This document shows positions 11,809 to 42,151 of a stretch of DNA of 64,000 nt, piece after piece; position 1 is the first letter of the stretch, and every line of letters starts with the position of its first letter. The notes below the pieces were generated by a model. It was not told where the DNA came from. It saw nothing but the letters and a program-made list of their open reading frames with translations, and did not search any database. Where the stretch lies: contig CAWDOD010000003.1 of assembly GCA_963803805.1 (NCBI GenBank), forward strand, positions 1 through 64,000, in the 5' to 3' direction. The translations under genes were made by a program, and so were the position numbers. Source of the DNA: an uncultured cyanobacterium (GTDB lineage Bacteria > Cyanobacteriota > Cyanobacteriia > Cyanobacteriales > CAWCAG01).

Positions 11809-11871
11809 GGTGTACAACAAAGGGTATAGTGCATGCCCTGCGGGACACGCACCATACCCAAACCGTTAGCG
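11809..11871 (+). repeat. attC-like site 1
   Basis: GGTGTACAAC-aaa-GGGTATAGTGCATG...CACGCACCATACCC-aaacc-GTT. Confidence 0.85.
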
Positions 11872-12207
11872 GCAATACCTTAGTAATAAAGAAATTGGTT
11901 CATTGAAAATCTTGAATTGTAGGATTGACCTGATATTTGGTTTTGTCCTCTCAACCGAAGTACAGTTGGACTTCTCTTGGATTATAAACATGGTTCCATT
12001 TATAACAATTATGAATATGAAAAAAGTAGCAAGAACTCTGGAAATGGTTAAAACATTAATAGTTTTATGTGCAATTGGGGCAGGAACACTTCTGGGGAAG
12101 TCCAAGTACTTCGGTTGCAAGAGAATATTCCAAGCTCAACTTTCCTACAGAAATTCAAGAGTAAGTGTCGGGGGAGAAATCCCCCCTTCCCCACCAAATA
12201 TAATCTC

Positions 12208-13104
12208 ATGAAAAAATCTCCAATTGATGTCTTATTTTACGAGCTATTTGGTTTCTATCCTAATAAGGCTGGGAGTGCTTACGAAATTTTAACCGCTGCT
12301 GCTATAAGAATAATTACTGGTGAAGAAGTGGAATTAGACCAGCGAGTTATGGGCAACTATAGTGATACAATTTATCAAGTGGACGGGGTAACGAAGAGCC
12401 AGTCACACGAATCGATGATTGAGGCTAAAGACTATACAATTCAGAATAAGAAAGTCGGACGAGGAGACATTCAAAAATTGCAGGGAGCATTGAGCGATTT
12501 GCGTTTTAAAGAAGGATTATTTACTTCGGCTACTGACTTTACAAAACCAGCAAAGAAATATGCTGAATCTTCCTTTCTCAATCCTAGTCAAAAACCAGTA
12601 CAATTATATCAGATAAGACCCTCTACCGAGGAAGATGAAAAAGGGCGAATCAAAAAATTTGAGATCACAATGGTTATGGTTCTTCCAAATTTTGAAAAAG
12701 CTAAGTACAAATATGCTTGGACAGAAGAGGCAGTTGAAAAATTCAAAAAGAATGGATTAGCAAACAAACAAATTTCAATTAAGGTCGAGACTCTTTACGA
12801 GGATAATGGAAGTTTTGCCACTAGTATTCAAGATTTCACACATGATAACCAACCAATATTGATGGATATTGATGAAGAATTAGCTAAAGGTTGTTGGATC
12901 TTTCGAGGGCTTTGTATTAAGCATGAAAACGAATATTATGGACTAAAGGGAATTGATTACGAAATCCCTTATTATCGCTTTTCAAGTACGTTTACAATAG
13001 AATCAGAAGGGAAGCCTAAAATATACGTGGCATCTGAAAATGGAGATGTAAACAAACTTATTACGGATAAACAGCTAAGAGAAATGATACGAATCAAAAA
13101 ATAA
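12208..13104 (+). CDS. Cassette 2: Mrr-like PD-(D/E)xK restriction endonuclease domain protein
   Basis: YE...QVDG...IEAKDY motif. Likely ATG at 12208 (MKKSPIDV), after a ~340 bp leader. Confidence 0.7.
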   Translation: MKKSPIDVLFYELFGFYPNKAGSAYEILTAAAIRIITGEEVELDQRVMGNYSDTIYQVDGVTKSQSHESMIEAKDYTIQNKKVGRGDIQKLQGALSDLRFKEGLFTSATDFTKPAKKYAESSFLNPSQKPVQLYQIRPSTEEDEKGRIKKFEITMVMVLPNFEKAKYKYAWTEEAVEKFKKNGLANKQISIKVETLYEDNGSFATSIQDFTHDNQPILMDIDEELAKGCWIFRGLCIKHENEYYGLKGIDYEIPYYRFSSTFTIESEGKPKIYVASENGDVNKLITDKQLREMIRIKK

Positions 13105-13106
13105 AA

Positions 13107-13303
13107 GCCGCTAACATTCTGTATGAAATCATGGCTGGTCAGTGGTATACGGAACTTTAGCTCTTTGTAGAAAGCCCGTCAATCCGCAGGATTGACTTAG
13201 TGTATTGAGAAAAATTAGCAAGCCAATCCTGCGGATTGCCTAGTTAGTAACTTGAAACTTTTGTACTTTTAAATCAGCCACGCTTCATACAGTGGCGTTG
13301 GGC
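13107..13303 (+). repeat. attC-like site 2 (family B, ~195 bp)
   Basis: GCCGCTAAC-att-CTGTATGAAATCATGGCTG...CAGCCACGCTTCATACAG-tggc-GTT. Confidence 0.85.
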
Positions 13304-13337
13304 ACAATTTAAACGAACGACAGTAACAATATAAAAT

Positions 13338-15863
13338 ATGGTTGACTTTAAGAAAAGATTGAACAAATCTGCAATCGACAAGAAAACAGACCCGATTGAA
13401 ATATATGATTCTTTAGATAGGAGAAGTATTGCAGGTCCTTTAAGACCAGCACAGAATAAAATTCTTAAGGAATGGTATAATTCTCAGTCAACCAAAAAAG
13501 ACTTAATTATTAAACTTCATACGGGAGAGGGAAAAACATTAATTGGTTTATTAATTCTTCAATCCAAAATTAACGCAGACCAAGGCCCTTGTTTATATGT
13601 TTGCCCTAATAAATATCTTGTTCAGCAAGCTAAAAAAGATGCCAAAAAGTTTGGTATAAGTTATTGCTCTATTGAACCTGATGGTTCAGTTCCAAATGAA
13701 TTTATAGACGGTAAAAAAATATTGATAACACACGTTCAAAAAGTATTTAACGGTAAAACTGTATTTGGCATTGGGAATGATTACATACCAGTAGAAAATA
13801 TAGTTTTGGACGATTCACACGCTTGTATTGATTCTATAAGAGATTCTTTCACGATTAACCTTGACAAAGACCACCAGATTTATAAAAAATTGAGGGAATT
13901 ATTCAAAGATAGTTTGTCAGACCAAGGTCAGGGAACATTTTTGGAAATTGAGAATGGAGACTATAACTCGTTTTTGCCAATACCATATTGGAGTTGGATA
14001 GATAAGTCTGAAGAATTACTAAGTATTCTTTCAGAGTATCGAGAGGAAACAGAGTTAGCTTTTGCTTGGCCATTTATTAAAGACAACATTAAAAACTGTC
14101 AAGCATTCATATCAGGACAGAATATTGAAATCACACCAATTCACATACCTATTGAAAAGTTTACATTCTTTGATAATGCTAAACAAAGAATTTTGATGTC
14201 TGCTACAACGCAGGACGATTCCTTTTTTATAAAGGGTTTGGGTTTTAATATTGATGCTGTAAAATCACCTTTAACCAATCCCGAACAGATTTGGTCAGGA
14301 GAAAAAATGTTATTGATTCCCTCTTTAATAGATGAAAAACTTGACCGCATCACAATTGTTAATGCATTAGCCTCACCTTCTGCAAAGAACTATGGAGTAG
14401 TATCATTAGTTTCCTCGTTTTCAAAATCTGAAATTTACCATTCACTTGGTGCAATTGTTCCTAAATCAGAACAGATTGGTCAAGTAGTTGACCATTTAAA
14501 AAAAGGGAATTACAAAGAGACTGTTGTCTTTGCAAATAGGTATGACGGTATTGATTTGCCTGATGAAACTTGTCGTATTCTCGTACTTGATGGTAAACCA
14601 TTCTTTTATTCATTATCTGATAGATATGAAGAAGCCAATCGTGTAAATAGTGATTCAATTAATATCAAAATCGCGCAAAAAATAGAACAAGGTTTAGGTA
14701 GAAGTGTAAGAGGTGAGAAAGACTACTGCATTATCTTCTTGATTGGTGCAGACCTTGTAAAATTCATAAAAAGTAGCAGAACAAATAAATATTTCTCATC
14801 TCAGACAAAAAAACAACTTGAAATAGGACTTGAAATTGCTGAAATGGCAGTTGAAGAACTCTCCGACAAGAATCAACCAATGGATGCAATGAAGTCTTTA
14901 ATGAAACAACTTTTACAAAGAGACGAAGGTTGGAAAGAATTCTACAAAGAAGAAATGAATAAAATAGTATCAGAACAAAATAACAGTTCTATATATGAAA
15001 CATTGGTATTAGAGCGTAAAGCAGCAGTTTCAAACTATTCCGGAGACTATGAAAAAGCTTGTGATTCAATCCAAAAAATAGTCGACAATTACTGCAATAA
15101 TGAAAGTGAGCGAGGTTGGTACTTACAATTATTGGCTAGATACAAATATTTAGACTCAAAAGTAGAGGCTAATTCATTACAAAAATCTGCTTTTTTAAAA
15201 AACCACGAATTACTTAAACCAAGTGAAGGAATAAATTATAAAAAATTAGAATATATAAATGAAAATAGAGTTCAGAGAATTTTAAGCTACATAAAAAACT
15301 TCCAAAGCTATCAAGAGCTTATGATAAGCATTGAAGGTGTTTTAAGTGACCTAGAATTTGGAACTTCATCAGAAAAATTTGAATCTGCTTTGAAAGAACT
15401 TGGTTTAATGCTTGGCTTTTTAAGTGAACGCCCTGATAAGGAGTTTAAAAAAGGTCCTGACAATTTATGGTGCGGTGTCAGCAATCAATATTTCATTTTT
15501 GAATGCAAAAGTGAAGTAAACATTGAAAGACAAGAGATTAACAAAAATGAAGCAGGACAAATGAATACACATTGTGCTTGGTTTGAAAGTCAATATGGAG
15601 AATCTCAAGTCAAAAGAATTTTAATCATACCAACTAAAAATCTTTCTTATCACGGAGATTTTGGACGTGATGTTGAAATTATGCGAAGAGGGACACTCAA
15701 AAGTTTGCGTACCAATGTCAAATCATTTTTTAAGGAGTTTAGTAAATACGAAATTCAGTCTTTAACTGATGAAAAAATACAGGAATTTATAAACGCACAC
15801 AAACTAGACATTGAATCATTAAAAACCTTATACTCAGAAAAATACTATAAGAAAACAAATTAA
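13338..15863 (+). CDS. Cassette 3: SF2 (DinG/XPD-like) helicase with C-terminal PD-(D/E)xK nuclease-like domain (Hna-like architecture)
   Basis: HTGEGKT Walker A, LDDSH, SAT and QGLGRSVR motifs; C-terminal GPDNLW...FECKS. Confidence 0.75.
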   Translation: MVDFKKRLNKSAIDKKTDPIEIYDSLDRRSIAGPLRPAQNKILKEWYNSQSTKKDLIIKLHTGEGKTLIGLLILQSKINADQGPCLYVCPNKYLVQQAKKDAKKFGISYCSIEPDGSVPNEFIDGKKILITHVQKVFNGKTVFGIGNDYIPVENIVLDDSHACIDSIRDSFTINLDKDHQIYKKLRELFKDSLSDQGQGTFLEIENGDYNSFLPIPYWSWIDKSEELLSILSEYREETELAFAWPFIKDNIKNCQAFISGQNIEITPIHIPIEKFTFFDNAKQRILMSATTQDDSFFIKGLGFNIDAVKSPLTNPEQIWSGEKMLLIPSLIDEKLDRITIVNALASPSAKNYGVVSLVSSFSKSEIYHSLGAIVPKSEQIGQVVDHLKKGNYKETVVFANRYDGIDLPDETCRILVLDGKPFFYSLSDRYEEANRVNSDSINIKIAQKIEQGLGRSVRGEKDYCIIFLIGADLVKFIKSSRTNKYFSSQTKKQLEIGLEIAEMAVEELSDKNQPMDAMKSLMKQLLQRDEGWKEFYKEEMNKIVSEQNNSSIYETLVLERKAAVSNYSGDYEKACDSIQKIVDNYCNNESERGWYLQLLARYKYLDSKVEANSLQKSAFLKNHELLKPSEGINYKKLEYINENRVQRILSYIKNFQSYQELMISIEGVLSDLEFGTSSEKFESALKELGLMLGFLSERPDKEFKKGPDNLWCGVSNQYFIFECKSEVNIERQEINKNEAGQMNTHCAWFESQYGESQVKRILIIPTKNLSYHGDFGRDVEIMRRGTLKSLRTNVKSFFKEFSKYEIQSLTDEKIQEFINAHKLDIESLKTLYSEKYYKKTN

Positions 15864-15867
15864 AAAC

Positions 15868-16001
15868 TGTGCCCAACAATGTATATAAAAAATAGTCGAA
15901 ATAGTAGTAAAATCAAGGCTTTTGACTCGTATCAAAGTTCGTGCTTAACCGAAAGTTTTGTGCTTCGAAATCGCCTACTTTTCATATACTAACCGTTAAG
16001 C
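15868..16001 (+). repeat. attC-like site 3 (family A, ~130 bp)
   Basis: TGTGCCCAAC-aat-GTATATAAAAAATAG...CTACTTTTCATATAC-taacc-GTT. Confidence 0.85.
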
Positions 16002-16240: not shown

Positions 16241-16375
16241 TGCCGCTAACAAAAGCTATACACCAGCAGGCGGGGGAAGTGGTCAGCCGCACCCGCAGTG
16301 CCTTCTGCTACTCTTGCTGTTGGCCGATAGTTGCGGGGTGATACGCCTGCCGGTGCATAGCTAAATACGTTGTGT
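16241..16375 (+). repeat. attC-like site 4
   Basis: TGCCGCTAAC-aaa-AGCTATACACCAGCAGGCG...CGCCTGCCGGTGCATAGCT-aaatac-GTT. Confidence 0.85.
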
Positions 16376-16397
16376 GTAATGTCGACTTAACGATAAG

Positions 16398-17198: not shown

Positions 17199-17221
17199 AA
17201 ACACTACGAACAACAATAAGT

Positions 17222-17788: not shown

Positions 17789-17789
17789 A

Positions 17790-17858
17790 ACACACAACAC
17801 TGTATATGAAATCATGGCACCCTGCGGGATGCCACGCTTCATATACTTAACGTTAGCA
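17790..17858 (+). repeat. attC-like site 5 (short)
   Basis: ACACACAAC-act-GTATATGAAATCATGGCA-ccctgcggga-TGCCACGCTTCATATAC-ttaac-GTT. Confidence 0.85.
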
Positions 17859-18853
17859 ACAACTCCCCTTCCATTCAAAAAACTCACTTAATAATCAATC
17901 AGTCTGCCCCTATTGTTGTACCTAAAACTTTGGCTACGCTCGGACTCGCCTTATCGATAATGTAAGTAGCGGACTGATAGGCATTCGGCAAACCTCTTTC
18001 CGCACGGCTACCTGCTTAGTTACTTATGCGGACTACTCAGCAGGCTGTGGAGAAAGCATGGTCTGGAACTGAATTCACAGCAACTTTCCCTCCCACCGGG
18101 ACGAGTAGGTATCTGCCAGCAGTGTAGCCTAGCGTGGGGACGATTTGAGATGCAGTTGCTAACACAATGTAAAAACCATGCGCTTACCCACCTTGTGGAC
18201 AGTTTATCAGTCAATCCCGCAATTTTGGCGAGCAGCGCAAAATAGTAAAAGGCCACCAGCCACCATAAATGGATAGGGGCAATTGACAGTAATCATAAAA
18301 TTGCTAACTTAACCTGCAAAATATACCGTGGCGCAAGGTTTTTACACGCGCCCGTTAGCAACAACTCCCTTTCCATTCAAAAACTCGCTGAATAATCCAT
18401 CAGTCTGCCACTAATACTGTATCTAAAACTTTTGCTACGTTCGGACGCGCCTTACCGACAATGTAACTAGCGGACTGATAGGCATTCGGCAAACCTCACT
18501 CCGAACGGCTACCCAATTAGTTATCTATGCGGACTGCTCAGCAGGCTGTGGAGAAAGCATAGTGGAACTGAATTCACAGCAACTTTCGCTCTCACCGGGA
18601 CGAGTAAGTATCTGCCAGCAGTGTAGCCTAGCGTGGGGACAATATGAGATGCAGTTGCTAACACAATGTAAAAACCATGCGCTTACCCACCTTGTGGACA
18701 ATTTATCAGTCAATCCCGCAATTTTGGCGAGCAGCGCAAAACAGTAAAAAGTCACCAGCAGCTATAAATGGACAGGGGCAATCGGCAGTAGCCATAAAAT
18801 TGCGAACTTAACCTGCAAAATATACCGTGGCGCACGGATTTTTACACGCGCCC
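17852..18853 (+). repeat. Cassettes 6 and 7: tandem diverged ~500-bp ORF-less cassettes with att sites 6 (18155-18360) and 7 (18654-18860)
   Basis: Two copies (17852-18353 and 18354-18853), each GTTAGCAAC...GTTGCTAAC followed by TGTAAAAACCATGCGC...GCGCA..TTTTTACA-cgcgccc-GTT. Confidence 0.85.
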
Positions 18854-18887
18854 GTTAGGTGTCATTAAATAAAACTGTACTGCATAA

Positions 18888-19998: not shown

Positions 19999-19999
19999 C

Positions 20000-20133
20000 G
20001 ACACCTAACAATGTATATAAAAAATAGGCGAAACAGTAGTAAATCCAAAGATTTTAGCTCGTTTCTAACTTTTTGCTTAAATGAAAGTTTAGTGCTTCGA
20101 AATCGCCTACTTTTCATATACCAAACGTTAGCG
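20000..20133 (+). repeat. attC-like site 8 (family A)
   Basis: GACACCTAAC-aat-GTATATAAAAAATAGGCGA...TCGCCTACTTTTCATATAC-caaac-GTT. Confidence 0.85.
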
Positions 20134-21555
20134 GCAATACCTTAGTAATAAAGAAATTGGTTCATTGAAAATCTTGAATTGTAGGATTGACCTGATATTT
20201 GGTTTTGTCCTCTCAACCGAAGTACAGTTGGACTTCTCTTGGATTATAAACATGGTTCCATTTATAACAATTATGAATATGAAAAAAGTAGCAAGAACTC
20301 TGGAAATGGTTAAAACATTAATAGTTTTATGTGCAATTGGGCAGGAACACTTCTGGGGAAGTCCAAGTACTTCGGTTGCAAGAGAATATTCCAAGCTCAA
20401 CTTTCCTACAGAAATTCAAGAGTAAGTGTCGGGGGAGAAATCCCCCCTTCCCCACCAAATATAATCTCATGAAAAAATCTCCAATTGATGTCTTATTTTA
20501 CGAGCTATTTGGTTTCTATCCTAATAAGGCTGGGAGTGTTACGAAATTTTAACCGCTGCTGCTATAAGAATAATTACTGGTGAAGAAGTGGAATTAGACC
20601 AGCGAGTTATGGGCAACTATAGTGATACAATTTATCAAGTGGACGGGGTAACGAAGAGCCAGTCACACGAATCGATGATGAGGCTAAAGACGATACAATT
20701 CAGAATAAGAAAGTCGGACGAGGAGACATTCAAAAATTGCAGGGAGCATTGAGCGATTTGCGTTTTAAAGAAGGATTATTTACTTCGGCTACTGACTTTA
20801 CAAAACCAGCAAAGAAATATGCTGAATCTTCCTTTCTCAATCCTAGTCAAAAACCAGTACAATCATATCAGATAAGACCCTCTACCGAGGAAGATGAAAA
20901 AGGGCGAATCAAAAAATTTGAGATCACAACGGTTATGGTTCTTCCAAATTTTGAAAAAGCTAAGTACAAATATGCTTGGACAGAAGAGGCAGTTGAAAAA
21001 TTCAAAAAGAATGGATTAGCAAACAAACAAATTTCAATTAAGGTCGAGACTCTTTACGAGGATAATGGAAGTTTTGCCACGAGTATTCAAGATTTCACAC
21101 ATGATAACCAACCAATATTGATGGATATTGATGAAGAATTAGCTAAAGGTTGTTGGATCTTTCGAGGGCTTTGTATTAAGCATGAAAACGAATATTATGG
21201 ACTAAAGGGAATTGATTACGAAATCCCTTATTATCGCTTTTCAAGTACGTTTACAATAGAATCAGAAGGGAAGCCTAAAATATACGTGGCATCTGAAAAT
21301 GGAGATGTAAACAAACTTATTACGGATAAACAGCTAAGAGAAATGATACGAATCAAAAAATAAAAGCCGCTAACATTCTGTATGAAATCATGGCTGGTCA
21401 GTGGTATACGGAACTTTAGCTCTTTGTAGAAGCCCGTCAATCCGCAGGATTGACTTAGTGTATTGAGAAAAATTAGCAAGCCAATCCTGCGGATTGCCTA
21501 GTCAGTAACTCGAAACTTTTGTACTTTTAAATCAGCCACGCTTCATACAGTGGCG
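20127..21555 (+). pseudogene. Cassette 9: near-identical copy of cassette 2 (Mrr-like nuclease) with frameshifts, including att site 9 (21366-21561)
   Basis: Matches 11865-13297 from GTT to GTT; 1-nt deletions near 20538 and 20679 break the ORF. Confidence 0.9.
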
Positions 21556-21589
21556 TTGTAGTGCATTAAAAAAGAAACCTCAGTTAAGC

Positions 21590-22069: not shown

Positions 22070-22201
22070 GCACTACAACAATCGCGAAGAAAACATGGGG
22101 CGACACAAACTGAAATCGAGCAATAATCTTCGCAGTTTAGTCCGTCACAGCTGGACAGACAAGAACTCTGAAATCCCACGTTTCTTAGCTTAGCGTTATA
22201 T
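22070..22201 (+). repeat. attC-like site 10 (family C variant)
   Basis: GCACTACAAC...AAGAAAACATGGG...CCCACGTTTCTT...GTT. Confidence 0.8.
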
Positions 22202-22230
22202 TGAATTAGGAATCACCTACCAAAGTCAAC

Positions 22231-23757
22231 TTGAACCTCGTAGAAAAACATTTCAGAAAAACAGAGAAACTTCTCAAGCTGATTGATAAGAACAGAATTT
22301 CGAACTGGCTTCTGAACGATGGCTACTTCCCAGAACAATATGTTTTACCTCCAACTTTTAGGGTTGACAAATTCAAGCTGAAGTCTAAACCCGAATTCAA
22401 GGATATTAATGATCTGCCAAGATTCGAGATAAACTCTATCTCCTATCCAAAATCATCTTTAACTTCTAGAGAGTTCGGTATTCAACACCCAAGAAACTAT
22501 CACGACATAGTATTTTGGCTGAATCAAGAATGGGAGTTTATTCTTAAACATCTCTTTCCTAAGAAACTCAAAATTTTCTCATACAGCATGCCAATTCCCG
22601 TTAACTCAAGATCAATTGGGAAACTAGGTAAGCTGCGTTCAGGAAGATTAATTTATGAGTGGATAACAATGACTGAAAAAGACCTTGTTGCTGAAGCGAG
22701 CAAGTATAAATTAATCGTCCGCTCGGATATTACGAACTTTTATAATTCAATATATACTCACAGTATTGGATGGGCGCTTCACGGACAAGAGAAAGCCTTC
22801 AAAGACAAGAAAAGTAGTTTACTAGGAAATAAGATTGATAAGTTGGTTCAATATGCCAACTATGGCCGAACTAATGGTTTACCAGTTGGATCAGCTTTAA
22901 GTAATTTAATCGCGGAACTGATACTCACCAAGGTAGATTTGAACGTATCAAAAAAACTAAAATCAGTTGACTTTCTAGCTACAAGATTTAAAGATGACTA
23001 TCGAATCCTATGCCATAATGATGATGATGCAAAACACATTCTCAAAGTGCTTGCAGATGAATTAAGAGAGTTCAATTTGCTAATTAATGAATCCAAAACA
23101 GCAATCCTCGAACTTCCTACTGGACTGTACAGACAGCACGATAGAGACTTCCATCCATTCTCTGTTAAGCGCAAGAAAAGTATAGGTTTTAAAACCTTTG
23201 AACTCACATTGCTCAAAGTTCTTGATATTCACCGTGAATATCCAGGAACCAGCATTATTGAAAAATACTTCAGCGAACTATTTGACAAGGACTATATACT
23301 CAAAATCAAATTCTCAAATCACACAGCATCAAAAAAGAAACAGATTTATAGTGCACTCAGTCTTCTCCTATTAACAAAACGAGAATCAGAAAAATCTATG
23401 AGCGCAATTCTTTCACTAATTGAGGTAATATACCTTGATAACCGATCAACATCTTTAAAAGAGCATCTGAAGGAACTTATCATGGCAGAAATTAAACTTG
23501 CTAATGAGAAGAAATCTGCATTTGACTTAGCTTGGCTAATCTTCTTCTCAAGGTATTTGTCATTGGGAATTAATGAGGTTTGGATAAGATGTAACGTTAA
23601 CTCAGAACTAAGAAAGAACTCATTTGTGGCTTCCATATTTTTAAGCAAACAGAAGATATTTACTGATTCGAAAGTGGATCTTTTTCAAAAACCCAAAGAC
23701 TGCAAAGACATATCACTTGCCAAAAGATTGGCAGTTTTCGAGCGAGACAAAACGTAA
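22231..23757 (+). CDS. Cassette 11: reverse transcriptase of Abi/UG (defence-associated) type
   Basis: DITNFYNSIYTHSIGWALHG, GLPVGSALS and catalytic RFKDDY; helical C-terminal extension. Confidence 0.82.
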   Translation: MNLVEKHFRKTEKLLKLIDKNRISNWLLNDGYFPEQYVLPPTFRVDKFKLKSKPEFKDINDLPRFEINSISYPKSSLTSREFGIQHPRNYHDIVFWLNQEWEFILKHLFPKKLKIFSYSMPIPVNSRSIGKLGKLRSGRLIYEWITMTEKDLVAEASKYKLIVRSDITNFYNSIYTHSIGWALHGQEKAFKDKKSSLLGNKIDKLVQYANYGRTNGLPVGSALSNLIAELILTKVDLNVSKKLKSVDFLATRFKDDYRILCHNDDDAKHILKVLADELREFNLLINESKTAILELPTGLYRQHDRDFHPFSVKRKKSIGFKTFELTLLKVLDIHREYPGTSIIEKYFSELFDKDYILKIKFSNHTASKKKQIYSALSLLLLTKRESEKSMSAILSLIEVIYLDNRSTSLKEHLKELIMAEIKLANEKKSAFDLAWLIFFSRYLSLGINEVWIRCNVNSELRKNSFVASIFLSKQKIFTDSKVDLFQKPKDCKDISLAKRLAVFERDKT

Positions 23758-23760: not shown

Positions 23761-23880
23761 TCAATATAACAAACACTATCATCCATAAGCTTACAGAGCT
23801 ATTTGCAAAGGCTGGTGCTATAAGATACTTTTATAGAAATTTGAAAAGTCTAGCTTACGGATGATAGTTGGGCGTTGGCG
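23761..23880 (+). repeat. attC-like site 11
   Basis: TCAATATAAC-aaac-ACTATCATCCATAAGCT...AGCTTACGGATGATAGT-tgggc-GTT. Confidence 0.85.
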
Positions 23881-24646: not shown

Positions 24647-24778
24647 TACCGCCAACAATGTATATAAAAAATAGGCAAAACAGTAGTAAATTCAAGGCTT
24701 TTGGCTCGTCAAACTTTGTGCTTAACCGAAAGTTTAGTACTTCGAAATTGCCTACTTTTCATATACTAAAAGTTATAA
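24647..24778 (+). repeat. attC-like site 12 (family A)
   Basis: TACCGCCAAC...family A stem...GTT. Confidence 0.85.
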
Positions 24779-24792: not shown

Positions 24793-25215
24793 ATGAAGAA
24801 AATATTAATAATAGCCGCTGTAGTGATAATTGGTGTGATTCTTTATCTGAATTACCTAGTTAAGGAACACGACTTAAGGCCATTACATAAATATGAAGAC
24901 ATTCAAATACCTGTAGGTCTTGATTGTTCTTCTGTCCGATTAGGGAATTTTGAAACTGAGAAATCATATATTGAAAGAACAGAAAGCAAACAAATTCAAA
25001 CGAACAAAGCAACCGGTGACAAGAAGGAATTTTACATGGATTGGAAAAGCAATTGTGAATATGTTCTGACATCAGTAAATGATGAATCTGAAGTGATAAG
25101 AATTAAAATTACTGCAGTTAACCCTGACAACTATGGCTGCTATGTGATTTCTGATAAATATGCGGACAATTACCCAAATTTTTTATCAATTACGCGTGTT
25201 AAAAAAAGCTTATAA
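24793..25215 (+). CDS. Cassette 13: hypothetical membrane-anchored protein
   Basis: MKKILIIAAVV start; the TAA stop lies inside GCTTATAAC. Confidence 0.65.
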   Translation: MKKILIIAAVVIIGVILYLNYLVKEHDLRPLHKYEDIQIPVGLDCSSVRLGNFETEKSYIERTESKQIQTNKATGDKKEFYMDWKSNCEYVLTSVNDESEVIRIKITAVNPDNYGCYVISDKYADNYPNFLSITRVKKSL

Positions 25216-25404
25216 CATTCTGTATGAAATCATGGCTGGTCAGTGCTAGACGCGACTTTGGTGCTTCGTGGCTAGCCCGTCAATCCGCAGGATTGACTTA
25301 CTGTGTTGAAATAATTTAGCAAGCCAATCCTGCGGATTGACTCGGTGGTAAACCGAAACTTTTGTACTTTTAAATCAGCCACGATTCATACAGTGGCGTT
25401 ACCT
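25208..25404 (+). repeat. attC-like site 13 (family B)
   Basis: GCTTATAAC-att-CTGTATGAAATCATGGCTG...CAGCCACGATTCATACAG-tggc-GTT. Confidence 0.85.
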
Positions 25405-25431: not shown

Positions 25432-25956
25432 ATGAAAATAATCCTTTTTACCATCATCTTCTTTGTCTCACTTTCAATTAACGGACAAGGCTTTCATGAT
25501 CGTCATCCAGAACTATCAAAGTTTGCTAAAAATATTGATGACCAATTAGAATCATACAAATCAGTTATACTTGAAAACGAGGCGTTTCTTGATAATATGA
25601 CGGACGGAGGAGGAATTCTAAAAGGCTATTTTTCAGGGGACAAAATCGTTAAAATTGAACTTTGGGCTGGAGTTTCGAACGGCAAACATGAATTTGACTA
25701 CTATTTTAAAGAATCTGAACTGTTCTATATAGTAGAGTCATTCAAGCGATATTCTTATGACGTGAACTCTGACACGTGGGACTACTCTAAACTGGTACAG
25801 TCATTCCAAGGAGACTACCTTTTCTTACCTACTTTTGACTACGAAACACTAGGACACAATAGATTCGAAAATGATGAGTTTGACCCCGAAGAGACATTGG
25901 CTGAGGAAGTAGAAGAGTATGTTAAACTTCTGAACGAGAAAAGAAACGAAAGGTAA
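25432..25956 (+). CDS. Cassette 14: secreted hypothetical protein
   Basis: Signal peptide MKIILFTIIFF; stop lies inside GAAAGGTAAC. Confidence 0.65.
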   Translation: MKIILFTIIFFVSLSINGQGFHDRHPELSKFAKNIDDQLESYKSVILENEAFLDNMTDGGGILKGYFSGDKIVKIELWAGVSNGKHEFDYYFKESELFYIVESFKRYSYDVNSDTWDYSKLVQSFQGDYLFLPTFDYETLGHNRFENDEFDPEETLAEEVEEYVKLLNEKRNER

Positions 25957-26144
25957 CATTCTGTATAAATCATGGCTGTTAGTAGGTTATTGTTCCTTTA
26001 GCTCTTTGTAGAAAGCCCGGCAATTTGCAGGATTGACTTATTGGTGAATATTAATTTAATAAGCCAATCCTGCGGATTGCCTCGGTAGTTCACTGAAATT
26101 TTTATACTTTTAATCAGCCACGAATTTATACAGTGGCGTTAGCT
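25948..26144 (+). repeat. attC-like site 14 (family B)
   Basis: GAAAGGTAAC-att-CTGTATAAATCATGGCTG...CAGCCACGAATTTATACAG-tggc-GTT. Confidence 0.85.
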
Positions 26145-26166: not shown

Positions 26167-27006
26167 ATGATTGACCCTGTAACTGGATTGACAATTTTAG
26201 GAGGAGCCTTCGGGGGAGCAAAAGTTCTTGAAAAAATATTAGGCCCTACCTCTGAATATATTGGTGACCAAATAAAGGAATGGACAAAAAAGAAAGTTGA
26301 AAATACTTCCAATATTTTCAAAAATGCAGAGAAAAAACTTGGTGATAAGATTAAGAATGATGGCCAGGTTCCTCCAAAGGTTCTAAAAGGAATATTAGAA
26401 GATGGTGCCTGGTGCGAAGAAGATCTGCAGGTAGAATATTTTGGAGGCGCTCTTGCTTCTTCCAGATCAGGTGTATCCAGAGATGATAGAGGTGCTTATT
26501 TTGTGTCCTTAATTGCAAGATTAACTACGTATCAATTAAGAACTCACTATCTATTTTATCATTTAATAAAGAAGCACTTTGATGGTCAAGATATAAACAT
26601 CAATGATGGTAATAATTGGAGAAACCTTGAAATTTTCCTGCCTTTCGAAACATTTTACCACGCTATGGATTTTACGGAAGATGAAGCCAACGATTGGTCG
26701 AACATCCTTTCCCATGCGGTTTGGGGATTGAACAAAGAAGAACTTTTGACTGGTTTTAGCTGGGGGCCAAAAGATCATGTCCAGAAGAAATTCAAACTTG
26801 CGGACACGGATGGAATAATCTTTCAACCTACAAAATCTGGTGTAGAATTATTTATGTGGGCATACGGTCATGGACAAGATTCAGTAAACAACTTCTTTAG
26901 TTCTGAACTCATATTCCCTAACGATCAAGCAATCAAAATTGGCAGCTCTGTTTCGACAAAAGAGGAAAAAGAAATGGAGCAAGAAAAAAAGAAAAACAAC
27001 AGCTAA
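26167..27006 (+). CDS. Cassette 15: hypothetical protein, possibly Abi-alpha-like
   Basis: VPPKVLKGILEDG..EEDLQVEYFGGALASS pattern; family guess is tentative. Confidence 0.5.
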   Translation: MIDPVTGLTILGGAFGGAKVLEKILGPTSEYIGDQIKEWTKKKVENTSNIFKNAEKKLGDKIKNDGQVPPKVLKGILEDGAWCEEDLQVEYFGGALASSRSGVSRDDRGAYFVSLIARLTTYQLRTHYLFYHLIKKHFDGQDININDGNNWRNLEIFLPFETFYHAMDFTEDEANDWSNILSHAVWGLNKEELLTGFSWGPKDHVQKKFKLADTDGIIFQPTKSGVELFMWAYGHGQDSVNNFFSSELIFPNDQAIKIGSSVSTKEEKEMEQEKKKNNS

Positions 27007-27052
27007 CAAAACCTAAACTGCATTAAAACGCAGTTTAGCCAAACCGTTGTGC
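26998..27052 (+). repeat. attC-like site 15 (minimal, 55 bp)
   Basis: AACAGCTAAC-aaaac-CTAAACTGC-attaaaac-GCAGTTTAG-ccaaacc-GTT. Confidence 0.85.
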
Positions 27053-27709: not shown

Positions 27710-27842
27710 ACGCACAACAATGTATATAAAAAATAGGCGAAACAGTACTAGATTCAAGGCTTTTGGCTCGCCTCAAAGTTGGTACTTAACCGAAAGTTTG
27801 GTACTTCGAAATCGCCTACTTTTCATATACTCAACGTTGTAT
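27710..27842 (+). repeat. attC-like site 16 (family A)
   Basis: ACGCACAAC...family A stem...GTT. Confidence 0.85.
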
Positions 27843-28928: not shown

Positions 28929-29062
28929 TACATACAACAAAGTATATAAAAAATAGGCGAAATAGTAGTGAAATCAATACTTTTGGCTCGTTTCAAACTT
29001 TATGTTTTACCGAAAGTTTAGTTCTTCCTAACTGCCTACTTTTCATATACTAAACGTTGTAG
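28929..29062 (+). repeat. attC-like site 17 (family A)
   Basis: TACATACAAC...family A stem...GTT. Confidence 0.85.
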
Positions 29063-29367: not shown

Positions 29368-29500
29368 GCACTACAACAACACATATAGCTTATGGCGGGT
29401 GAACAGCTACCAGCAAGGGTTTCGCTCCGTAGCCAGCCTTGGTTTCAATGGACAGGAAAGTGCGTCGAAAGCGCCACAAGCCATATGCAAACCGTTAGCG
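29368..29500 (+). repeat. attC-like site 18
   Basis: GCACTACAAC-aaca-CATATAGCTTATGGCG...CGCCACAAGCCATATG-caaacc-GTT. Confidence 0.85.
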
Positions 29501-32677: not shown

Positions 32678-32750
32678 GGCGCTAACAACGTGTAAATTTC
32701 ATAGCTGTTTCGTACCTTACAGCAACGTAAATTTACACTAAACGTTGTGG
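32678..32750 (+). repeat. attC-like site 19
   Basis: GGCGCTAAC-aac-GTGTAAATTT...AAATTTACAC-taaac-GTT. Confidence 0.85.
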
Positions 32751-35528: not shown

Positions 35529-35661
35529 TAGCCACAACATTGGCTAAGAAAACATAGGGCAGTAATTACTTTCAGAAAGGTTAGTTCATTTAGCAAGCTT
35601 TAGTTTCGGTGGATAAATAATCACTCCGAAAGCCCAACGTTTCTTAGCCTAAAGGTTGGCA
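35529..35661 (+). repeat. attC-like site 20 (family C)
   Basis: TAGCCACAAC-att-GGCTAAGAAAACATAGGGC...GCCCAACGTTTCTTAGCC-taaag-GTT. Confidence 0.85.
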
Positions 35662-36924: not shown

Positions 36925-36925
36925 C

Positions 36926-37059
36926 TATTGCCAACAACGGCTATAAGCAATTGGGGTTTAGGTGCTTAACCTAAAATTAAAATATAAAACAAAGGTCTGT
37001 GCTAAACTGAAAAGTAAGAGCAAAAAATCCCCAACTGCTCATAGCCACGACCGTTAGCG
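36926..37059 (+). repeat. attC-like site 21
   Basis: TATTGCCAAC-aac-GGCTATAAGCAATTGGGG...CCCCAACTGCTCATAGCC-acgacc-GTT. Confidence 0.85.
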
Positions 37060-37086
37060 GTCAGCTAAAAAACATTACGGTAAACA

Positions 37087-38077
37087 ATGAAAGTAGAAGA
37101 CATAAAATCATTTGACGGACAACATTGCGAGACAACAGCGACAGGAACATTGTTGCGACAACTCGACATTGAACTTTCCGAACCAATGCTTTTTGGTTTA
37201 GGTGAAGGACTTGGGTTCATCTTTTGGAATATGAAGACAATGGACTTTCCATTTATTGGTGGACGAGTAAAAACCGACCTTGTAACACAAAATATCGCAA
37301 GAAATCTGAACCTTGAATTGACCGTTAAGGAAACTTCATCAGTAAAAAAGGCTTGGGACAGCGTAAAAAAACTAATTAACAATGGAAAAGTAGTCGGTTT
37401 AAAATTGGACTGTTACCATTTGCAATATTTTTCTCGACCATTTCATTTTGCAGGACATTATGTTGCAATTTACAACTATGACAACGAAAATGCTTTTTTG
37501 GTGGACACCAAACAGCAAGGCGGACAAGTAAAAACAAGTTTGAAAAGTTTGGAGTTGGCAAGAGCAGAAAAAGGACCAATGTCCTCTAAAAATTTGTTTT
37601 ACACAATTAACAAGACTGACAAAGACTTTGCCCTGAAAGAAGCGATTATTACAGCAATAAGAAATAACGCAACTGATTATTTAAATCCACCAATTACAAA
37701 TATTGGTTATAAAGGGATTTTAAAAACAAGCAAAGAAATAATCAAGTGGTTTAATACCAGTAAAGACATTGAAAACGAATTTAGCGCTTCTGCAATGATT
37801 ATGGAAAAAGCAGGAACAGGCGGAGCGCTATAGAAACTTGTACAGAGACTTTTTAAAAGAAAGTTGCGACTTGCTTAAACTTGACGAACTAAAATCAGGA
37901 CACAAAGCATTTATTGAAATTGCTACACTTTGGACTACAGTTGCAGAACTCTTTGAGAAGGTGAGTAAAACGAATGACTTTAAGTATGTTCAACAAGCAG
38001 CAGACATTTTAAAAACAATATCTGACAAAGAAAAAAAGGCAATGGAAATGTTGAGTAAAATAAAGCCGAACCGCTAA
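37087..38077 (+). pseudogene. Cassette 22: BtrH-N/DUF4872-like protein, frameshifted near 37831
   Basis: GQHCETTATG, LSEPMLFGLGEGLGF and HFAGHYV motifs; continuation ORF 37838-38077. Confidence 0.7.
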
Positions 38078-38201
38078 CAATGTGTATAAAAATAGGCGAA
38101 ACAGTAATAAATTCAAGGCTTATGGCTCGTATCAAAGTTTGTGCTTCACCGAAAGTTTAGTGCTTCAAAATCGCCTACTTTTCATATATTAAACGTTGTG
38201 G
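38070..38201 (+). repeat. attC-like site 22 (family A)
   Basis: ACCGCTAAC...TCGCCTACTTTTCATATAT-taaac-GTT. Confidence 0.85.
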
Positions 38202-38240
38202 CTAATACAAAACAGACATTCAACTAAAGAGACAGACTTT

Positions 38241-38786: not shown

Positions 38787-38916
38787 CCACAACAATGGCT
38801 AAGAAAACATAGGGCAGATAAGGCTTTCAGAAAGGTTCGTGCACTTAACAAACTTCAGTTTCGGTGGACAGTAAAATCGCTTCGAAAGCCCTACGTTCCT
38901 TAGCCAAGCGTTAGCG
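38784..38916 (+). repeat. attC-like site 23 (family C)
   Basis: TAGCCACAAC-aat-GGCTAAGAAAACATAGGGC...GCCCTACGTTCCTTAGCC-aagc-GTT. Confidence 0.85.
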
Positions 38917-38930
38917 GCAATGATATTACC

Positions 38931-40021
38931 ATGAATAAAGCCAATTTTCTACTACTAATAATTGCAATTCTTTTTGGCCATACGTCAAAAGCACAGGAGA
39001 GATATTTAAAATTGGATTCCCTTCTAACCACTCGATATCAAAATCAAGAATTTTCAGGTGTTGTGATTGTTGCTGAAGGAGATGAAATTACCTATGCAAA
39101 TGCACTTGGATATGCAGATTATGAACAAAGAATTCCATTGAACCTTTCTACCCAGTTTGATCTATCATCCGGATCAAAACTTTTCACAGCCGTTGCAATA
39201 GCTCAACTGGTCGAACAAAATAAATTATCTTTTCATACAAAAGTCTCGGAATTTTTCCCGAACTATCTTTTGCTTCCAAGGTGGATGTACATCAGTTAAT
39301 GACCCATTCTTCTGGACTGGGAAACTTTCAAACGGTCAAAGGCTTCAGTTATCAAAATATTAATTCATGTATTGACGCCTTGCCATTTATAAAAGACGAA
39401 CTATTACTCTACGAACCAGGCGACAGTGCATATTATGCTACTTCCAACCTGCTGGTACTGGGGGCAATGGTTGAAAAAATCTCAGGACTTCCTTTTCCAG
39501 AATATGTCAAGAAAAACATCTCGGAAAAACTCGGTCTTGACAGAACAACCTTTGATACATACTTCTACATTCAGGATTATGCAGGACGCGATGGGCGATT
39601 TGCTAAGGGATATATTAAAAATGAAGAGGGGCAAATAGTCGAAAAGAACAGATACGAAAATGAAAGGACTCACTTAACTCTATCAGCCGGTGGAATGTGG
39701 GCGAGTGCCGCAGATTTGTTCAAATTTGACAGAGCTATCTTTTCAGGTAACTTATTTAATAAAGAACTCCTTAAACCGATGACTGCCCATCATGTTTTTA
39801 CCGGATGGGAAGGCACTTATTTCGGCTATGTTTTTAATATCATCAATGTGAAGACGCACAAGGAGGGTGTTGGTCATGCAGGAAATAGTTCGGGGCATCA
39901 CAGCTTTAACTTTCACTATGAAAACAAGGATACAACACTAATTATTTTGACCAACTATGGATTCATTGACATTTTTGAATTAGCACATAGCCAAATTGAA
40001 CCCATACTATTTGACGAATAA
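38931..40021 (+). pseudogene. Cassette 24: serine hydrolase (beta-lactamase/PBP-like), split by a frameshift near 39280
   Basis: SGSK (SxxK) in the first ORF; LMTHSSG and GHAG in the second. Confidence 0.75.
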
Positions 40022-40022
40022 A

Positions 40023-40141
40023 GCCGCTAACAAACGATATAGCATATGCCTCTATGAAGTTACTTGAAACTGTTCTGCAAAACCGCTAGATTGTAGATGT
40101 TAAAATAGTTCAGAGGCACATACCATATCTGGTCATTAGAG
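40023..40141 (+). repeat. attC-like site 24 (ATT instead of GTT core)
   Basis: GCCGCTAAC-aaac-GATATAGCATATGCCTCT...AGAGGCACATACCATATC-tggtc-ATT. Confidence 0.78.
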
Positions 40142-40149
40142 CCAATACC

Positions 40150-40719
40150 ATGATTCGATATTTTCTACTAATTATCATAATGTCTGCATGCTCTCCTACT
40201 AACGAGGATTGTTTAGAAAAACTGAACAGCGAGCTTGGCTCTAAGTATTCTGAGCCTCTTGACGAGTTGACCCATGAATTCGAACGTATTGTGATGAAAT
40301 CAGACGGTTCAAGTTTCCCAGATAAATGTAGGAATTTCCTAAAACCTCTTGCATCTGGGAAGGATCAAGAATTCTTCTCAAAAATTGTCAAGAGAGAAGA
40401 GCTTGTGAACGCTGTTAGTGGATTGGACACTATGATTTTCAAGTATGAATACTATAAAACGGATAGCCTCTCAACTAAGAAATATATTTCGAACAAATGG
40501 AACGGTAACTTTATCAAAGCGCTATCAACCTTAACGGAATGTGACGAATTGATTTCCGGATATGTAGAAACTATAGTGGAAACTGGGGGAATAGGACCTG
40601 TTCTAGTGGCGAATGGAGCAATTGTTAATTACAGTGATGAAGAATTCAACAACCCAATTGTCAAGCGAATACTGGCAGTGGAAGTTCTTCTACCTTACTT
40701 GACATATTCTCCTGACTAA
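40150..40719 (+). CDS. Cassette 25: hypothetical lipoprotein
   Basis: Lipobox MSAC. Confidence 0.65.
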   Translation: MIRYFLLIIIMSACSPTNEDCLEKLNSELGSKYSEPLDELTHEFERIVMKSDGSSFPDKCRNFLKPLASGKDQEFFSKIVKREELVNAVSGLDTMIFKYEYYKTDSLSTKKYISNKWNGNFIKALSTLTECDELISGYVETIVETGGIGPVLVANGAIVNYSDEEFNNPIVKRILAVEVLLPYLTYSPD

Positions 40720-40723
40720 AAAA

Positions 40724-40939
40724 GGCTCTAACATTACCTAAAAATGCATTTGCTTACTGCTTCTAGCAAGTTGAGCATATAATTCTCCACAAAGCCAATC
40801 ACTTATCTTCCTTTAAAAAGAGGGTTGTCGAAGTGCTTCTCTCCTTTTACTGCTTTGCAATTGTAGTTACGGTTTGGCTTTGCTACTTTAGTACTTCGTC
40901 AGCGAATTGCGGCAAACGCATTTTAGCCGGGCGTTGTAG
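40724..40939 (+). repeat. attC-like site 25 (~215 bp)
   Basis: GGCTCTAAC...CTAAAAATGCATTTGC...GCAAACGCATTTTAG-ccgggc-GTT. Confidence 0.82.
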
Positions 40940-41012
40940 CACATTTCTGAAAACTGCTTCATTTGAAATTTTGTAACTTGGAACCAACTAACAACCAACC
41001 GACTACATCAAT

Positions 41013-42008
41013 ATGAAACGATTTATTAGCTCAAAACCAATAATTAGCTATCTACTAATCGCATATTTAATCACATTCTCATTCTGGTTTGCACCAAATA
41101 TATTTGAAGTAACTACAGACATTAGATTTGGACTTTTTACTATTGGAGGATGTGGACCTTTAATTGCAGCATATCTGGTTATGCTCATTCAATCTGAAAG
41201 GAAAATTGAAATACCATCTTTGAAAATCTTCTTTCTCTTCTTCTTTCTCTCATTATTTTCTATCACTGCCCTAATGTACTCTATAGATTTAGGAAATATA
41301 AATGAAGAAGGCTTCACACCAAGATTACAGAATGTTAGTATCCTAGGTTGGCTACTAGTATTATTGTTTTGTTTTATTACCGGACTTAACGCTAGTAATG
41401 CAGCAAACACAAAATTAAAAGAGAATTATCTGAAAACATTCTTGTTTGAAAATCAAAAATTAAAATGGTACGCTATTGCCCTTTTAATATTCCCTACACT
41501 TTCAATGCTTGGGTATTTTCTCGGGGATTTTCTTGGATTCAAGTTGACTGATTTTTTTATAAAATATGAACCTTTTTGGCTGTTGACATTTCTGGGTACT
41601 TTCCTATACTTTGGCGGAAACGAGGAATTTGGATGGAGAGGATTTATGCAAAAGGAACTACAAAAGAAATACAGTCCATTAATTAGTGCTTTACTTATAA
41701 GTGTAGCTTGGAACTTTTGGCATCTACCAATGCATTATAATGGAATTTATTCAACAGGCGGGATTGCAGACCTTCTTCCAAGATTTTTATTGATAGTACC
41801 TCATACTATAATGCTAACTTGGTTATTCAATAAGTCAAAATATTCATTACTTGCCGTAGTTCTTTTACATACAATGCATAATAGTTTCACCAGTATATTT
41901 GGTGGAGCAAGAGAAAGTCTATTCATTCTTCAAATGCTATTTTGTGTCATTGTAATAATAAAAGAAAAAATGTGGAAAAAAATAGACTACAGTAAGGTAA
42001 TTGATTAA
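41013..42008 (+). CDS. Cassette 26: CPBP (CAAX/Abi) family intramembrane metalloprotease
   Basis: EEFGWRG, WHLP and HTMHN motifs. Confidence 0.88.
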   Translation: MKRFISSKPIISYLLIAYLITFSFWFAPNIFEVTTDIRFGLFTIGGCGPLIAAYLVMLIQSERKIEIPSLKIFFLFFFLSLFSITALMYSIDLGNINEEGFTPRLQNVSILGWLLVLLFCFITGLNASNAANTKLKENYLKTFLFENQKLKWYAIALLIFPTLSMLGYFLGDFLGFKLTDFFIKYEPFWLLTFLGTFLYFGGNEEFGWRGFMQKELQKKYSPLISALLISVAWNFWHLPMHYNGIYSTGGIADLLPRFLLIVPHTIMLTWLFNKSKYSLLAVVLLHTMHNSFTSIFGGARESLFILQMLFCVIVIIKEKMWKKIDYSKVID

Positions 42009-42016
42009 TAAAAAAC

Positions 42017-42151
42017 GTGCTACAACAATGTATAACCGCAATTACGGCGGATTCGACTGCGTCCGAATCCACTCGGAATTGCTAAGCCAGTGTTCAACCG
42101 AAAAAACAGTAACTTTAAACCCGTAACTGACGGTTATACCAACCGTTGGGC
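42017..42151 (+). repeat. attC-like site 26
   Basis: GTGCTACAAC-aat-GTATAACCGCAATTACGG...CCGTAACTGACGGTTATAC-caacc-GTT. Confidence 0.85.

Follow-up and report, generated by a model that had tools for sequence, protein, structure and literature searches.

Hairpin sites of a Bacteroidota-type integron-like cassette array carry a position-fixed G-T wobble that probably marks the folded bottom strand

The stretch of DNA analyzed here (the window) comprises 64,000 nucleotides (nt) of contig CAWDOD010000003.1, positions 1 to 64,000 of the forward strand (assembly GCA_963803805.1, deposited as an uncultured cyanobacterium). At 11.1-42.2 kb it carries an integron-like cassette array, located 3' of a gene encoding a 377-amino acid (aa) tyrosine recombinase and running in the same direction. 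The attC-type sites of this array were located by a scan for hairpins bounded by AAC and GTT, and four more were picked out by eye. An earlier interpretation made from the letters alone (the sequence-only reading) had placed 27 sites in 11809..42151; 26 were found there, between 11812 and 42151, and the 27th lies outside that range at 46653-46782. The layout it had described, with AAC, a spacer, two arms, a second spacer and GTT, was borne out, and the arms it had quoted for sites 1, 4 and 21 and for family A match the sequence letter for letter. The platform is made up of a recombinase gene, a putative insertion site just behind it and a row of cassettes, each closed by an imperfect hairpin between AAC and GTT cores. 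Its features are listed below. Each left arm was locally aligned to the reverse complement of its right arm, scoring every mismatch type alike; differences are written in that order, with their stem positions, and the paired values are whole-site folding energies (top strand / bottom strand, kcal/mol).

9988..11121, plus strand: tyrosine recombinase gene, 377 aa; Pfam matches to Phage_integrase and SAM-like domains; Xer-like core with a conserved domain of about 108 aa at the N-terminus
11134..11171, plus: putative attI; perfect 11-bp palindrome at 11134-11159, 5 nt, core GTTGTAC at 11165-11171
11812..11871, plus: site 1; 60 nt with boxes; A/G at 7 and 12, C/T at 15; -10.6 / -14.2
13109..13303, plus: site 2; family B, long form; one extra left-arm base and A/G; -31.7 / -34.4
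15871..16001, plus: site 3; family A; A/G at 7 and 12, T/G at 16; -6.9 / -11.8
16244..16375, plus: site 4; A/G at 7 and 12; -24.3 / -25.9
17792..17858, plus: site 5; short, stem like family B; extra left-arm base, A/G, C/T; -11.4 / -13.5
18157..18360, plus: site 6; only site without a wobble; A/T at 11; -28.7 / -31.8
18656..18860, plus: site 7; sister of site 6; one additional base on the right arm, A/G at 12; -22.5 / -24.2
20003..20133, plus: site 8; family A; A/G at 7 and 12; -12.6 / -15.9
21368..21561, plus: site 9; family B; one extra left-arm base and A/G, like site 2; -29.7 / -34.3
22073..22203, plus: site 10; G/T at 3, extra left-arm base, A/G at 12; -11.3 / -13.4
23764..23880, plus: site 11; one A/G, at 11; -14.8 / -16.0
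24650..24778, plus: site 12; family A; A/G at 7 and 12; -11.9 / -12.9
25210..25404, plus: site 13; family B; extra left-arm base, A/G at 13; -42.4 / -44.5
25951..26144, plus: site 14; variant of family B; additional bases on the right arm, A/G at 13; -31.3 / -31.1 (slightly in favour of the top strand)
27001..27052, plus: site 15; shortest; A/G at 10; -7.7 / -8.8
27712..27842, plus: site 16; family A; A/G at 7 and 12; -16.8 / -19.2
28932..29062, plus: site 17; family A; A/G at 8 and 13; -16.5 / -15.7 (top favoured); outer stem -7.3 / -9.2
29371..29500, plus: site 18; A/G at 6 and 11; -16.2 / -17.2
32680..32750, plus: site 19; extra right-arm base, A/G at 13, A/T at 15; -12.6 / -14.0
35532..35661, plus: site 20; extra left-arm base, A/G at 13, A/T at 15; -20.4 / -17.8 (top favoured); outer stem -11.2 / -11.4
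36929..37059, plus: site 21; A/G at 7 and 12; -17.6 / -20.4
38072..38202, plus: site 22; decayed family A copy; left arm minus one base, A/G at 9; sole site top-favoured in both fold tests
38787..38916, plus: site 23; extra left-arm base, A/G at 10 and 14; -17.9 / -17.0
40025..40142, plus: site 24; R' core ATT, not GTT; A/G at 6 and 11, C/T at 8; -10.3 / -9.8
40726..40939, plus: site 25; long form; A/G at 8 of the aligned stem; -20.0 / -23.1
42020..42151, plus: site 26; final complete site in the chain; one additional base on the right arm, A/G at 13; -21.0 / -22.1

The open reading frames (ORFs) of the cassettes are co-directional, all but one on the top strand and each upstream of its own site, and the G+C content is 0.32-0.38 over most of the array, compared with 0.41-0.44 for the flanks. 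At 24 of the 25 junctions between the 26 sites the seven-letter R' box and the R'' box of the following site are exact reverse complements, the variable part of R' belonging, as in integrons, to the next cassette. This chain rule extends beyond the junctions at both ends: GTTGTAC of the putative attI (11165) matches R'' of site 1 in reverse complement, and R' of site 26 pairs in the same way with a truncated box at 44220. Complementarity of this kind is the signature of integron cassettes bounded within the GTT core. All 27 window sites also have the attC architecture, R''(..AAC), L'', a variable part, L' and R'(GTT..). Site lengths, over 56 distinct sites of the window and its relatives, range from 44 to 206 nt and group around 58-63, 120-127 and 185-187 nt, successive groups being roughly 63 nt apart. 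The core of site 24 (40136-40138) is ATT where that of every other site is GTT, and cassettes 24 and 25 are probably locked together.

The two arms of these hairpins differ in one direction. Where an A of the left arm faces a C of the right arm, the folded top strand has an A-C mismatch, and the folded bottom strand has a T-G wobble at the same place. The 27 window sites have 38 A/G and 3 C/T differences, no G/A, no T/C and 14 transversions, which makes 41 differences of the bottom-wobble type versus 0 of the top type; the 14 one-base gaps are divided between the left arm (8) and the right arm (6). At least one A/G difference is present in 26 of the 27 sites, the remaining one, site 6, having A/T instead. 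The sequence-only reading had already noted that the differences are mostly A versus G, that sites 11, 18 and 24 behave likewise and that family B and site 26 add a single bulged base, and the arm alignment agrees with it on each of these points, the bulge being on the left arm in family B and on the right arm in site 26. The bias is not built into the comparison because site orientation was set by the recombinase gene and the direction of the ORFs and not by the mismatches.

An automatic census covered the window and ten related stretches (eight genomes including that of the window). It gave 104 candidates, of which 68 were kept by a geometry or chain filter; the 36 that were left out include the genuine site 1, and 24 of the 27 window sites were captured. 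In these 24 the bias is 34 versus 0 (binomial p = 1e-10). The 68 kept sites have 101 A/G, 5 C/T, 1 G/A, 6 T/C and 25 transversions, and reduction to 56 distinct arm pairs left 93 differences of the bottom-wobble type (88 A/G and 5 C/T) versus 7 of the top type. Because the genomes are kin and a large share of the sites are copies related to one another, these p-values overstate independence, and the safest count is the one made with a single representative for each of 18 families from 8 genomes, namely 27 versus 1 (p = 2e-7), which is still far beyond chance.

A bias of this kind could in principle be produced by mutation without any selection, if cytosines of an often single-stranded bottom strand were deaminated and G-C pairs thereby became G-T pairs. 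A C-to-T change on one strand always yields G-T in the hairpin of that strand, and every transition counted between the arms of window sites belongs to this type. However, deamination is expected on both arms and at all positions, whereas the 56 distinct sites have 88 A/G versus 5 C/T, concentrated at two positions, and the differences are conserved across genomes whose recombinases are only about 50% identical. Mutation bias is therefore a very improbable source of the pattern.

The position of the wobble is nearly invariant. In 55 of the 56 distinct sites a distal A/G difference lies 14-17 nt past AAC (42 at nt 15 and 11 at nt 16), while a proximal A/G difference 9-11 nt past AAC is present in 21 and an extra left-arm base at nt 11 in eight. 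The commonest spacer is 3 nt after AAC (29/56) and 5 nt before GTT (28/56), and the GTT-side spacer is the longer one in 54 sites. We then aligned the bottom strands of 34 distinct sites of about 122 nt from 8 genomes, which share 18 stem pairs. In this set 90.7% of the cells pair, compared with 60.3% in shuffles and 41-49% with slid partners, and 17 of the 18 stem pairs covary with both sides changing. The distal pair is G-U (that is, G-T) in 29 of the 34 sites and G-C or A-U in none. Apart from selection on the bottom strand in its folded form, or on whatever reads this pair, there is little that would explain a stem which covaries freely and yet contains one obligatory wobble. The proposal of the sequence-only reading that the sites are recognised by their structure gains support from this. 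The sites of this size class also share a conserved interior motif across genomes, so that the sites are not wholly unrelated in sequence as had been thought: the stems do differ, but there are several repeat families besides this shared interior.

Alternatively, the A and the G might reflect unlike sequence requirements of two non-equivalent half-sites that are read in the duplex, without any folded strand. The recombinase is a plain Xer-type enzyme, and duplex core sites are the normal substrates of this class; the bases beside the distal position are partly conserved, and TAT/TAA is conserved at stem positions 4-6, all of which would suit such a reading. Against this, the stem sequences are otherwise free and the covariation, seen at 17 of 18 pairs, is what selection for pairing within one strand leaves behind, the arm-to-arm distances of 44 to 206 nt misfit a single duplex core site, and the whole architecture matches attC, which according to PMC2727003 is recombined in folded form. 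We consider the duplex reading unlikely.

Both strands of the 27 sites were folded with DNA parameters (Mathews 2004), in which the nearest-neighbour values for G-T pairs in DNA are approximate. The whole-site minimum free energy is lower for the bottom strand in 21 of the 27 sites, the variable interiors adding noise to these folds. When only the outer 30 nt on each side were free to pair, the bottom strand was lower in 26 of 27, the exception being the decayed site 22, with a mean advantage of 1.9 kcal/mol (Wilcoxon p = 2e-5). The folding asymmetry between the strands is real but modest. It favours the bottom strand, as the sequence-only reading had predicted; its wording that only this strand folds well is an overstatement, since the top strand folds too. 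That interpretation was right in direction and overstated in degree, and can be called partly supported.

The weaker folding of the top strand raises the possibility of selection at the level of RNA, in which A-C mismatches would weaken the hairpins of sense transcripts and ease transcription or translation, the G-T pairs of the bottom strand being a by-product of keeping the DNA palindrome. With all cassette ORFs but one on the top strand, each site is transcribed in the sense that carries A-C mismatches, and the top-strand folds are indeed the weaker ones in 21 of the 27 sites. In class 1 integrons the structure of attC in the mRNA affects the translation of cassettes. Yet weakening a hairpin requires no fixed position or arm, while in 55 of 56 sites the A belongs to the 5' arm and lies 14-17 nt past AAC, and the distal mismatch is never repaired or moved; the destabilisation amounts to only about 2 kcal/mol, and the positions coincide with those of the extrahelical bases of canonical attC, which are protein contacts. 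Selection on RNA is improbable as the explanation of the mispairs, although weaker sense-RNA hairpins are a possible side benefit.

It is least probable that the hairpins are transcription terminators for antisense RNA in which G-U pairs would be tolerated. The short sites 1, 5 and 15 do fit a terminator-like pattern on the minus strand. The scan gave 17 terminator-like matches versus 11.9 +/- 3.4 expected in 20 kb and only three of them fall on att sites, these being the three shortest, where the apparent T tail is the TTT of the spacer followed by the GTT core. The sites of 120-206 nt have no T run, and a terminator would leave both the chain rule and the mobility of the cassettes unexplained.

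The 377-aa recombinase is Xer-like. Its best NCBIfam match is XerA_Arch with 212.9 bits (cut-off 220), and it matches the IntI model TIGR02249 with 196 bits (cut-off 265) in two stretches of the profile, 6-178 and 240-313. Similarly, residues 114-279 and 303-371 align to residues 12-178 and 245-313 of VchIntIA (2a3v), leaving 23 residues where the 2a3v integrase (IntI4) has 66, whereas Pyrococcus XerA (4a8e) aligns with it end to end. The alignment to 2a3v indicates that the IntI-specific additional domain (the I2 helix region), which is present in integron integrases, is absent here. It is established that this domain holds the extrahelical bases, as MacDonald reportedly described in 2006; Bouvier 2009 bears on this role as well. 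The recombinase has instead an extra N-terminal part, for which no Pfam family was found with residues 1-111 at E-values up to 5. In a structure model built with 40 homologues (predicted local distance difference test score, pLDDT, 84.9) residues 6-75 form a compact beta-beta-alpha-beta-beta-alpha-beta domain that is conserved in the family; the pLDDT of this alpha/beta part (residues 1-105, window 9988-10300) is about 87-93. Look-alikes of the N-terminal domain in the structure atlas scored 0.84-0.86, under the meaningful level, and a Foldseek search with the whole recombinase model returned recombinase cores only. This N-terminal domain is a candidate for the part that reads the hairpin.

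The putative attI consists of a hairpin with perfect 11-bp arms and a 4-nt loop beside GTT. This layout, a hairpin followed by 4-5 nt and GTT, is conserved behind the recombinase gene in 8 related loci with differing sequences, among them L003, L033, L034, L036, L037, L038 and L042. Canonical attI sites are not hairpins.

The chain rule and the hairpins do not end with site 26, and the region to its right contains a further set of features.

44216..44226, plus strand: truncated further site; its R'' box GCCCAAC (44220) is the reverse complement of R' of site 26
44909-45418, minus: Y2 transposase-like gene, between the truncated site and the second recombinase
45666..46526, minus: second recombinase gene, Xer-like, shorter (286 aa), 37% identical to the first
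46597-46655: short hairpin site between the second recombinase and site 27
46653..46782, plus: site 27; full family A copy (46657-46778 by narrower bounds), 131 nt from the start of the second recombinase gene; A/G at 7 and 12; -13.4 / -14.7

The right half of the truncated site at 44220 was not found. The second recombinase also matches TIGR02249 in two stretches (profile 4-180 and 239-315), indicating that the insertion is absent there too. The segment 44216-46782 may represent either an element that was inserted or a second platform of opposite orientation.

The genes carried by the cassettes are mostly defence, acetyltransferase (GNAT), hydrolase and ABC transporter genes. An Imm33-like immunity domain is encoded by the first cassette, and it is the only immunity domain among the 35 ORFs scanned. 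Three anti-phage defence candidates were identified, a PDC-S28 helicase (1097 bits, 13338-15863), an RT_UG14 reverse transcriptase (657 bits, 22231-23757) and an Mrr-like nuclease (12067-13104). The cassette formed by the Mrr-like nuclease gene and its family B site is present in two copies (11868-13299 and 20130-21557) that are 99.3% identical; since the ORFs called in them are 345 aa and 208 aa, one copy is probably broken. A serine-hydrolase gene (Pfam Beta-lactamase fold, 38931-40021) is split into overlapping ORFs of 122 and 246 aa that match positions 2-84 and 96-309 of the profile, and is probably a frameshifted cassette gene. The reverse transcriptase gene beside site 10 had suggested a group II intron inserted in an attC; this was rejected, as there is no intron RNA match and the protein is the defence-type RT_UG14. 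At gathering scores no Rfam family matched the sites, the sole match in the window being a full-length tmRNA gene (56209-56606, minus strand, 125 bits) in the cyanobacterial-like part of the contig.

A protein database search with the recombinase gave at least 7965 matches at E <= 1e-30 (8000 candidates scored). The best 120 of these at least 7965 matches are 363-400 aa long and the named ones are all from Bacteroidota; the closest among the matches listed are Marivirga proteins with 60-72% identity. In other genomes, arrays of the same layout lie 3' of recombinases that are 47-56% identical, and these related downstream regions have the same chain rule and the same A/G differences. A homologue (E <= 1e-90) was found in 14 of 301 sampled genomes of the class in a search centred on a Crocinitomicaceae metagenome-assembled genome (MAG). 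The searches in the window genome's own order and phylum (0/400 and 0/400 other genomes) are uninformative on distribution because the genome is apparently cyanobacterial and the array Bacteroidota-like, so that they sampled the wrong phylum.

The flanks point to the same mixed origin. The cassette proteins cluster with Cyclobacteriaceae, a protein sorted by the type IX secretion system and the helicase are at least 90% identical to Cyclobacteriaceae or Lunatibacter proteins, and the left flank, Bacteroidota-like as is the array, encodes CarboxypepD_reg and Plug domains at 66-4775. Beginning with proB (53804-54910), the proteins group instead with those of a Spirulinaceae cyanobacterium MAG, the identity being at least 90% for the flank proteins at 53.8 and 58.6 kb. 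To judge from these affinities, the contig looks chimeric or looks to carry a very large transfer, with a change of origin between about 49.9 and 53.8 kb. As to mobility, contigs of two other metagenomes hold single cassettes from this array in different surroundings, and their similarity to the window is lost at 11165, 13296/13297, 15998 and 27713, all of them cassette cores. These contigs are short and assembled, so that they are supportive only. Six apparent contig joints have sides of just 20-23 letters and were given no weight, and two raw-read runs had 0 reads on the stretch and so bear on neither excision nor joints. The helicase cassette protein also clusters at 90% identity or more with a protein from another genus.

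With the site architecture, the chain rule, the covarying stem, the position-fixed mispair of one strand and a recombinase without the IntI insertion as observations, we conclude that the sites are probably attC-type recombination sites of a Bacteroidota-type integron-like platform, in which the folded bottom strand is marked by a G-T wobble. The sites would act as folded single strands, as in integrons, with the bottom strand as the substrate of recombination. The distal wobble, invariant at 15-16 nt from the core, would mark this strand, and the proximal wobble (about 10 nt from the core and often swapped for a one-base bulge) and the unequal central spacer of 3 nt and 5 nt would add to the mark. 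These marks would stabilise the L-box stem of the bottom strand by about 2 kcal/mol relative to that of the top strand and would offer the recombinase a T that is locally distorted and easily opened, at the place where canonical attC has an extrahelical T. Cleavage would take place within the GTT/AAC core, as the cassette boundaries indicate, and the choice of strand would fix the orientation in which a cassette is inserted. Most likely, the fixed G-T mispairs of one strand direct a simple Xer-type recombinase to the strand that is to be folded and cut, a role that flipped-out bases have in classical integrons.

Several points weigh against this interpretation. No recombination event, single-stranded intermediate or cut strand was observed. 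The bottom strand is not favoured in 6 of the 27 whole-site folds, the top strand folds as well (-6.9 to -42.4 kcal/mol), and the energy bias is small beside totals of -7 to -44 kcal/mol, calculated moreover with the approximate G-T values mentioned above. The proximal wobble is present in just 21 of the 56 sites, and seven one-base bulges are on the right arm, which is not the arm that carries the extrahelical bases in canonical attC. A T follows the A in 47 of the 88 A/G cases, which leaves room for a reading of sequence rather than shape. Site 6 has A/T and no wobble at all, and the relatives have six T/C and one G/A differences that are wobbles of the top strand. Five of these T/C differences are at nt 6 after AAC in one family of one genome and are the sole recurrent exception to the bottom-strand rule. 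This family comprises the L034 sites at 3184, 8113, 8474, 13647 and 14930, and the difference is conserved in it.

Among the closest known systems is the attC of integrons with IntI (class 1 and the Vibrio VCR). The layout R''-L''...L'-R', the AAC and GTT cores, an unpaired and unequal central spacer, the cassette boundary in the GTT core, the ORF on the top strand upstream of the site and the variable site length are common to both. The strand marks are on the same arm and at nearly the same distance from the core; they are unpaired bases in attC and G-T wobbles in the array, and the spacers are of 5/6 nt in attC and 3/5 nt here. As a control, 12 attC candidates from the class 1 integrons of four plasmids were subjected to the same arm alignment. 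Nine of the 12 have two extra left-arm bases at stem positions 4 and 11, which with the 5-nt spacer counted are nt 9 and 16 after AAC, and no positional wobble was found in this control. The wobbles at nt 10 and 15/16 are thus within one nucleotide of the canonical extrahelical G and T, and the distal one uses the same base as its canonical counterpart, A on the top and T on the bottom strand. The fixed features of the present sites are G-T pairs and not the extrahelical L''-arm bases that the bottom strand of canonical attC presents. The suggestion of the sequence-only reading that the wobbles play the part of the extrahelical bases fits these positions and the lack of the IntI insertion in the recombinase. 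According to Bouvier 2009 (PMC2727003), extrahelical bases and the central spacer set the choice of strand in canonical attC.

Relative to IntI, the array recombinase is without the IntI-specific insertion and has an extra N-terminal domain that lacks a known family; its gene, unlike that of integrons, is transcribed in the direction of the cassettes, and the putative attI is a perfect hairpin beside GTT. In the integron-like subgroup described by Smyshlyaev 2021 (PMC8138268) the insertion is 'not fully conserved'. More tentatively, and with somewhat less than even probability in our estimation, the G-T wobble could be a true functional replacement of the extrahelical base, the T being read or flipped by a recombinase that has no I2 helix, perhaps through its N-terminal domain; the system would then be a pre-I2 state of the integron or an independent second invention of single-strand cassette recombination. 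If so, the I2 helix would not be needed for a working integron. Strand choice decides the orientation, and hence the expression, of each gene captured by an integron, and the accepted answer relies on extrahelical bases that an integrase-specific helix holds. The sites of the array form an extensive natural set in which both are lacking, with one invariant G-T pair at the place of the extrahelical T and a plain Xer-type recombinase as the enzyme. This set provides a simple and testable code of strand choice for the recombination of single-stranded DNA, and the array a natural comparison for the evolution of integron integrases.

Two Xer systems can also be compared. Dimer resolution by Xer at dif involves one duplex dif site per replicon, unlike the 27 structured sites that form a cassette chain behind the recombinase gene. 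XerCD also integrates the folded single-stranded DNA of CTX phage at dif, which makes it a case of a Xer-type enzyme without the IntI insertion acting on a hairpin of one strand. The strand specificity there comes from imperfections of the hairpin, and it concerns one phage attachment site and the host dif, not cassette arrays. We know of no fixed G-T code for CTX and XerCD.

The platform as such is already published under the name rAID-1, the recombinase-associated acquired interbacterial defence clusters of Bacteroidales (Ross et al. 2019, bioRxiv 10.1101/471110). In the available text of that work, related clusters are reported in 226 of 423 Bacteroidales and are defined by a 5' XerD-like recombinase more than 44% identical to that of the B. 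fragilis rAID-1. The array recombinase is XerD-like in nature, and at least two co-directional downstream genes have a G+C of 41% or lower as in rAID-1. The Imm33-like domain of the first cassette is a further likeness. The arrays of rAID-1 are made of orphan immunity genes, unlike most of the cassettes described here. The available text of Ross et al. 2019 has no occurrence of 'hairpin', 'attC' or 'repeat' and does not deal with strand choice or mispairs, although the motif logos of its Fig. S4 may show the conserved positions without remark. Likewise, wobble pairs are not mentioned in the available parts of PMC6393395 and PMC2727003, and a literature search that covered articles without their supplementary files returned no paper linking attC or integron-like sites to wobble or G-T pairs. 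The IntegronFinder 2.0 census (PMC9024848), which requires IntI, reports in its accessible sections only In0 elements and one complete integron (Salinibacter) for the Bacteroidetes, which would make them nearly integron-free, and yet close homologues of the array recombinase are present in the 14 class genomes mentioned above. Compared with these systems, what is new here is the substitution of a wobble for the bulge together with a recombinase that has no insertion.

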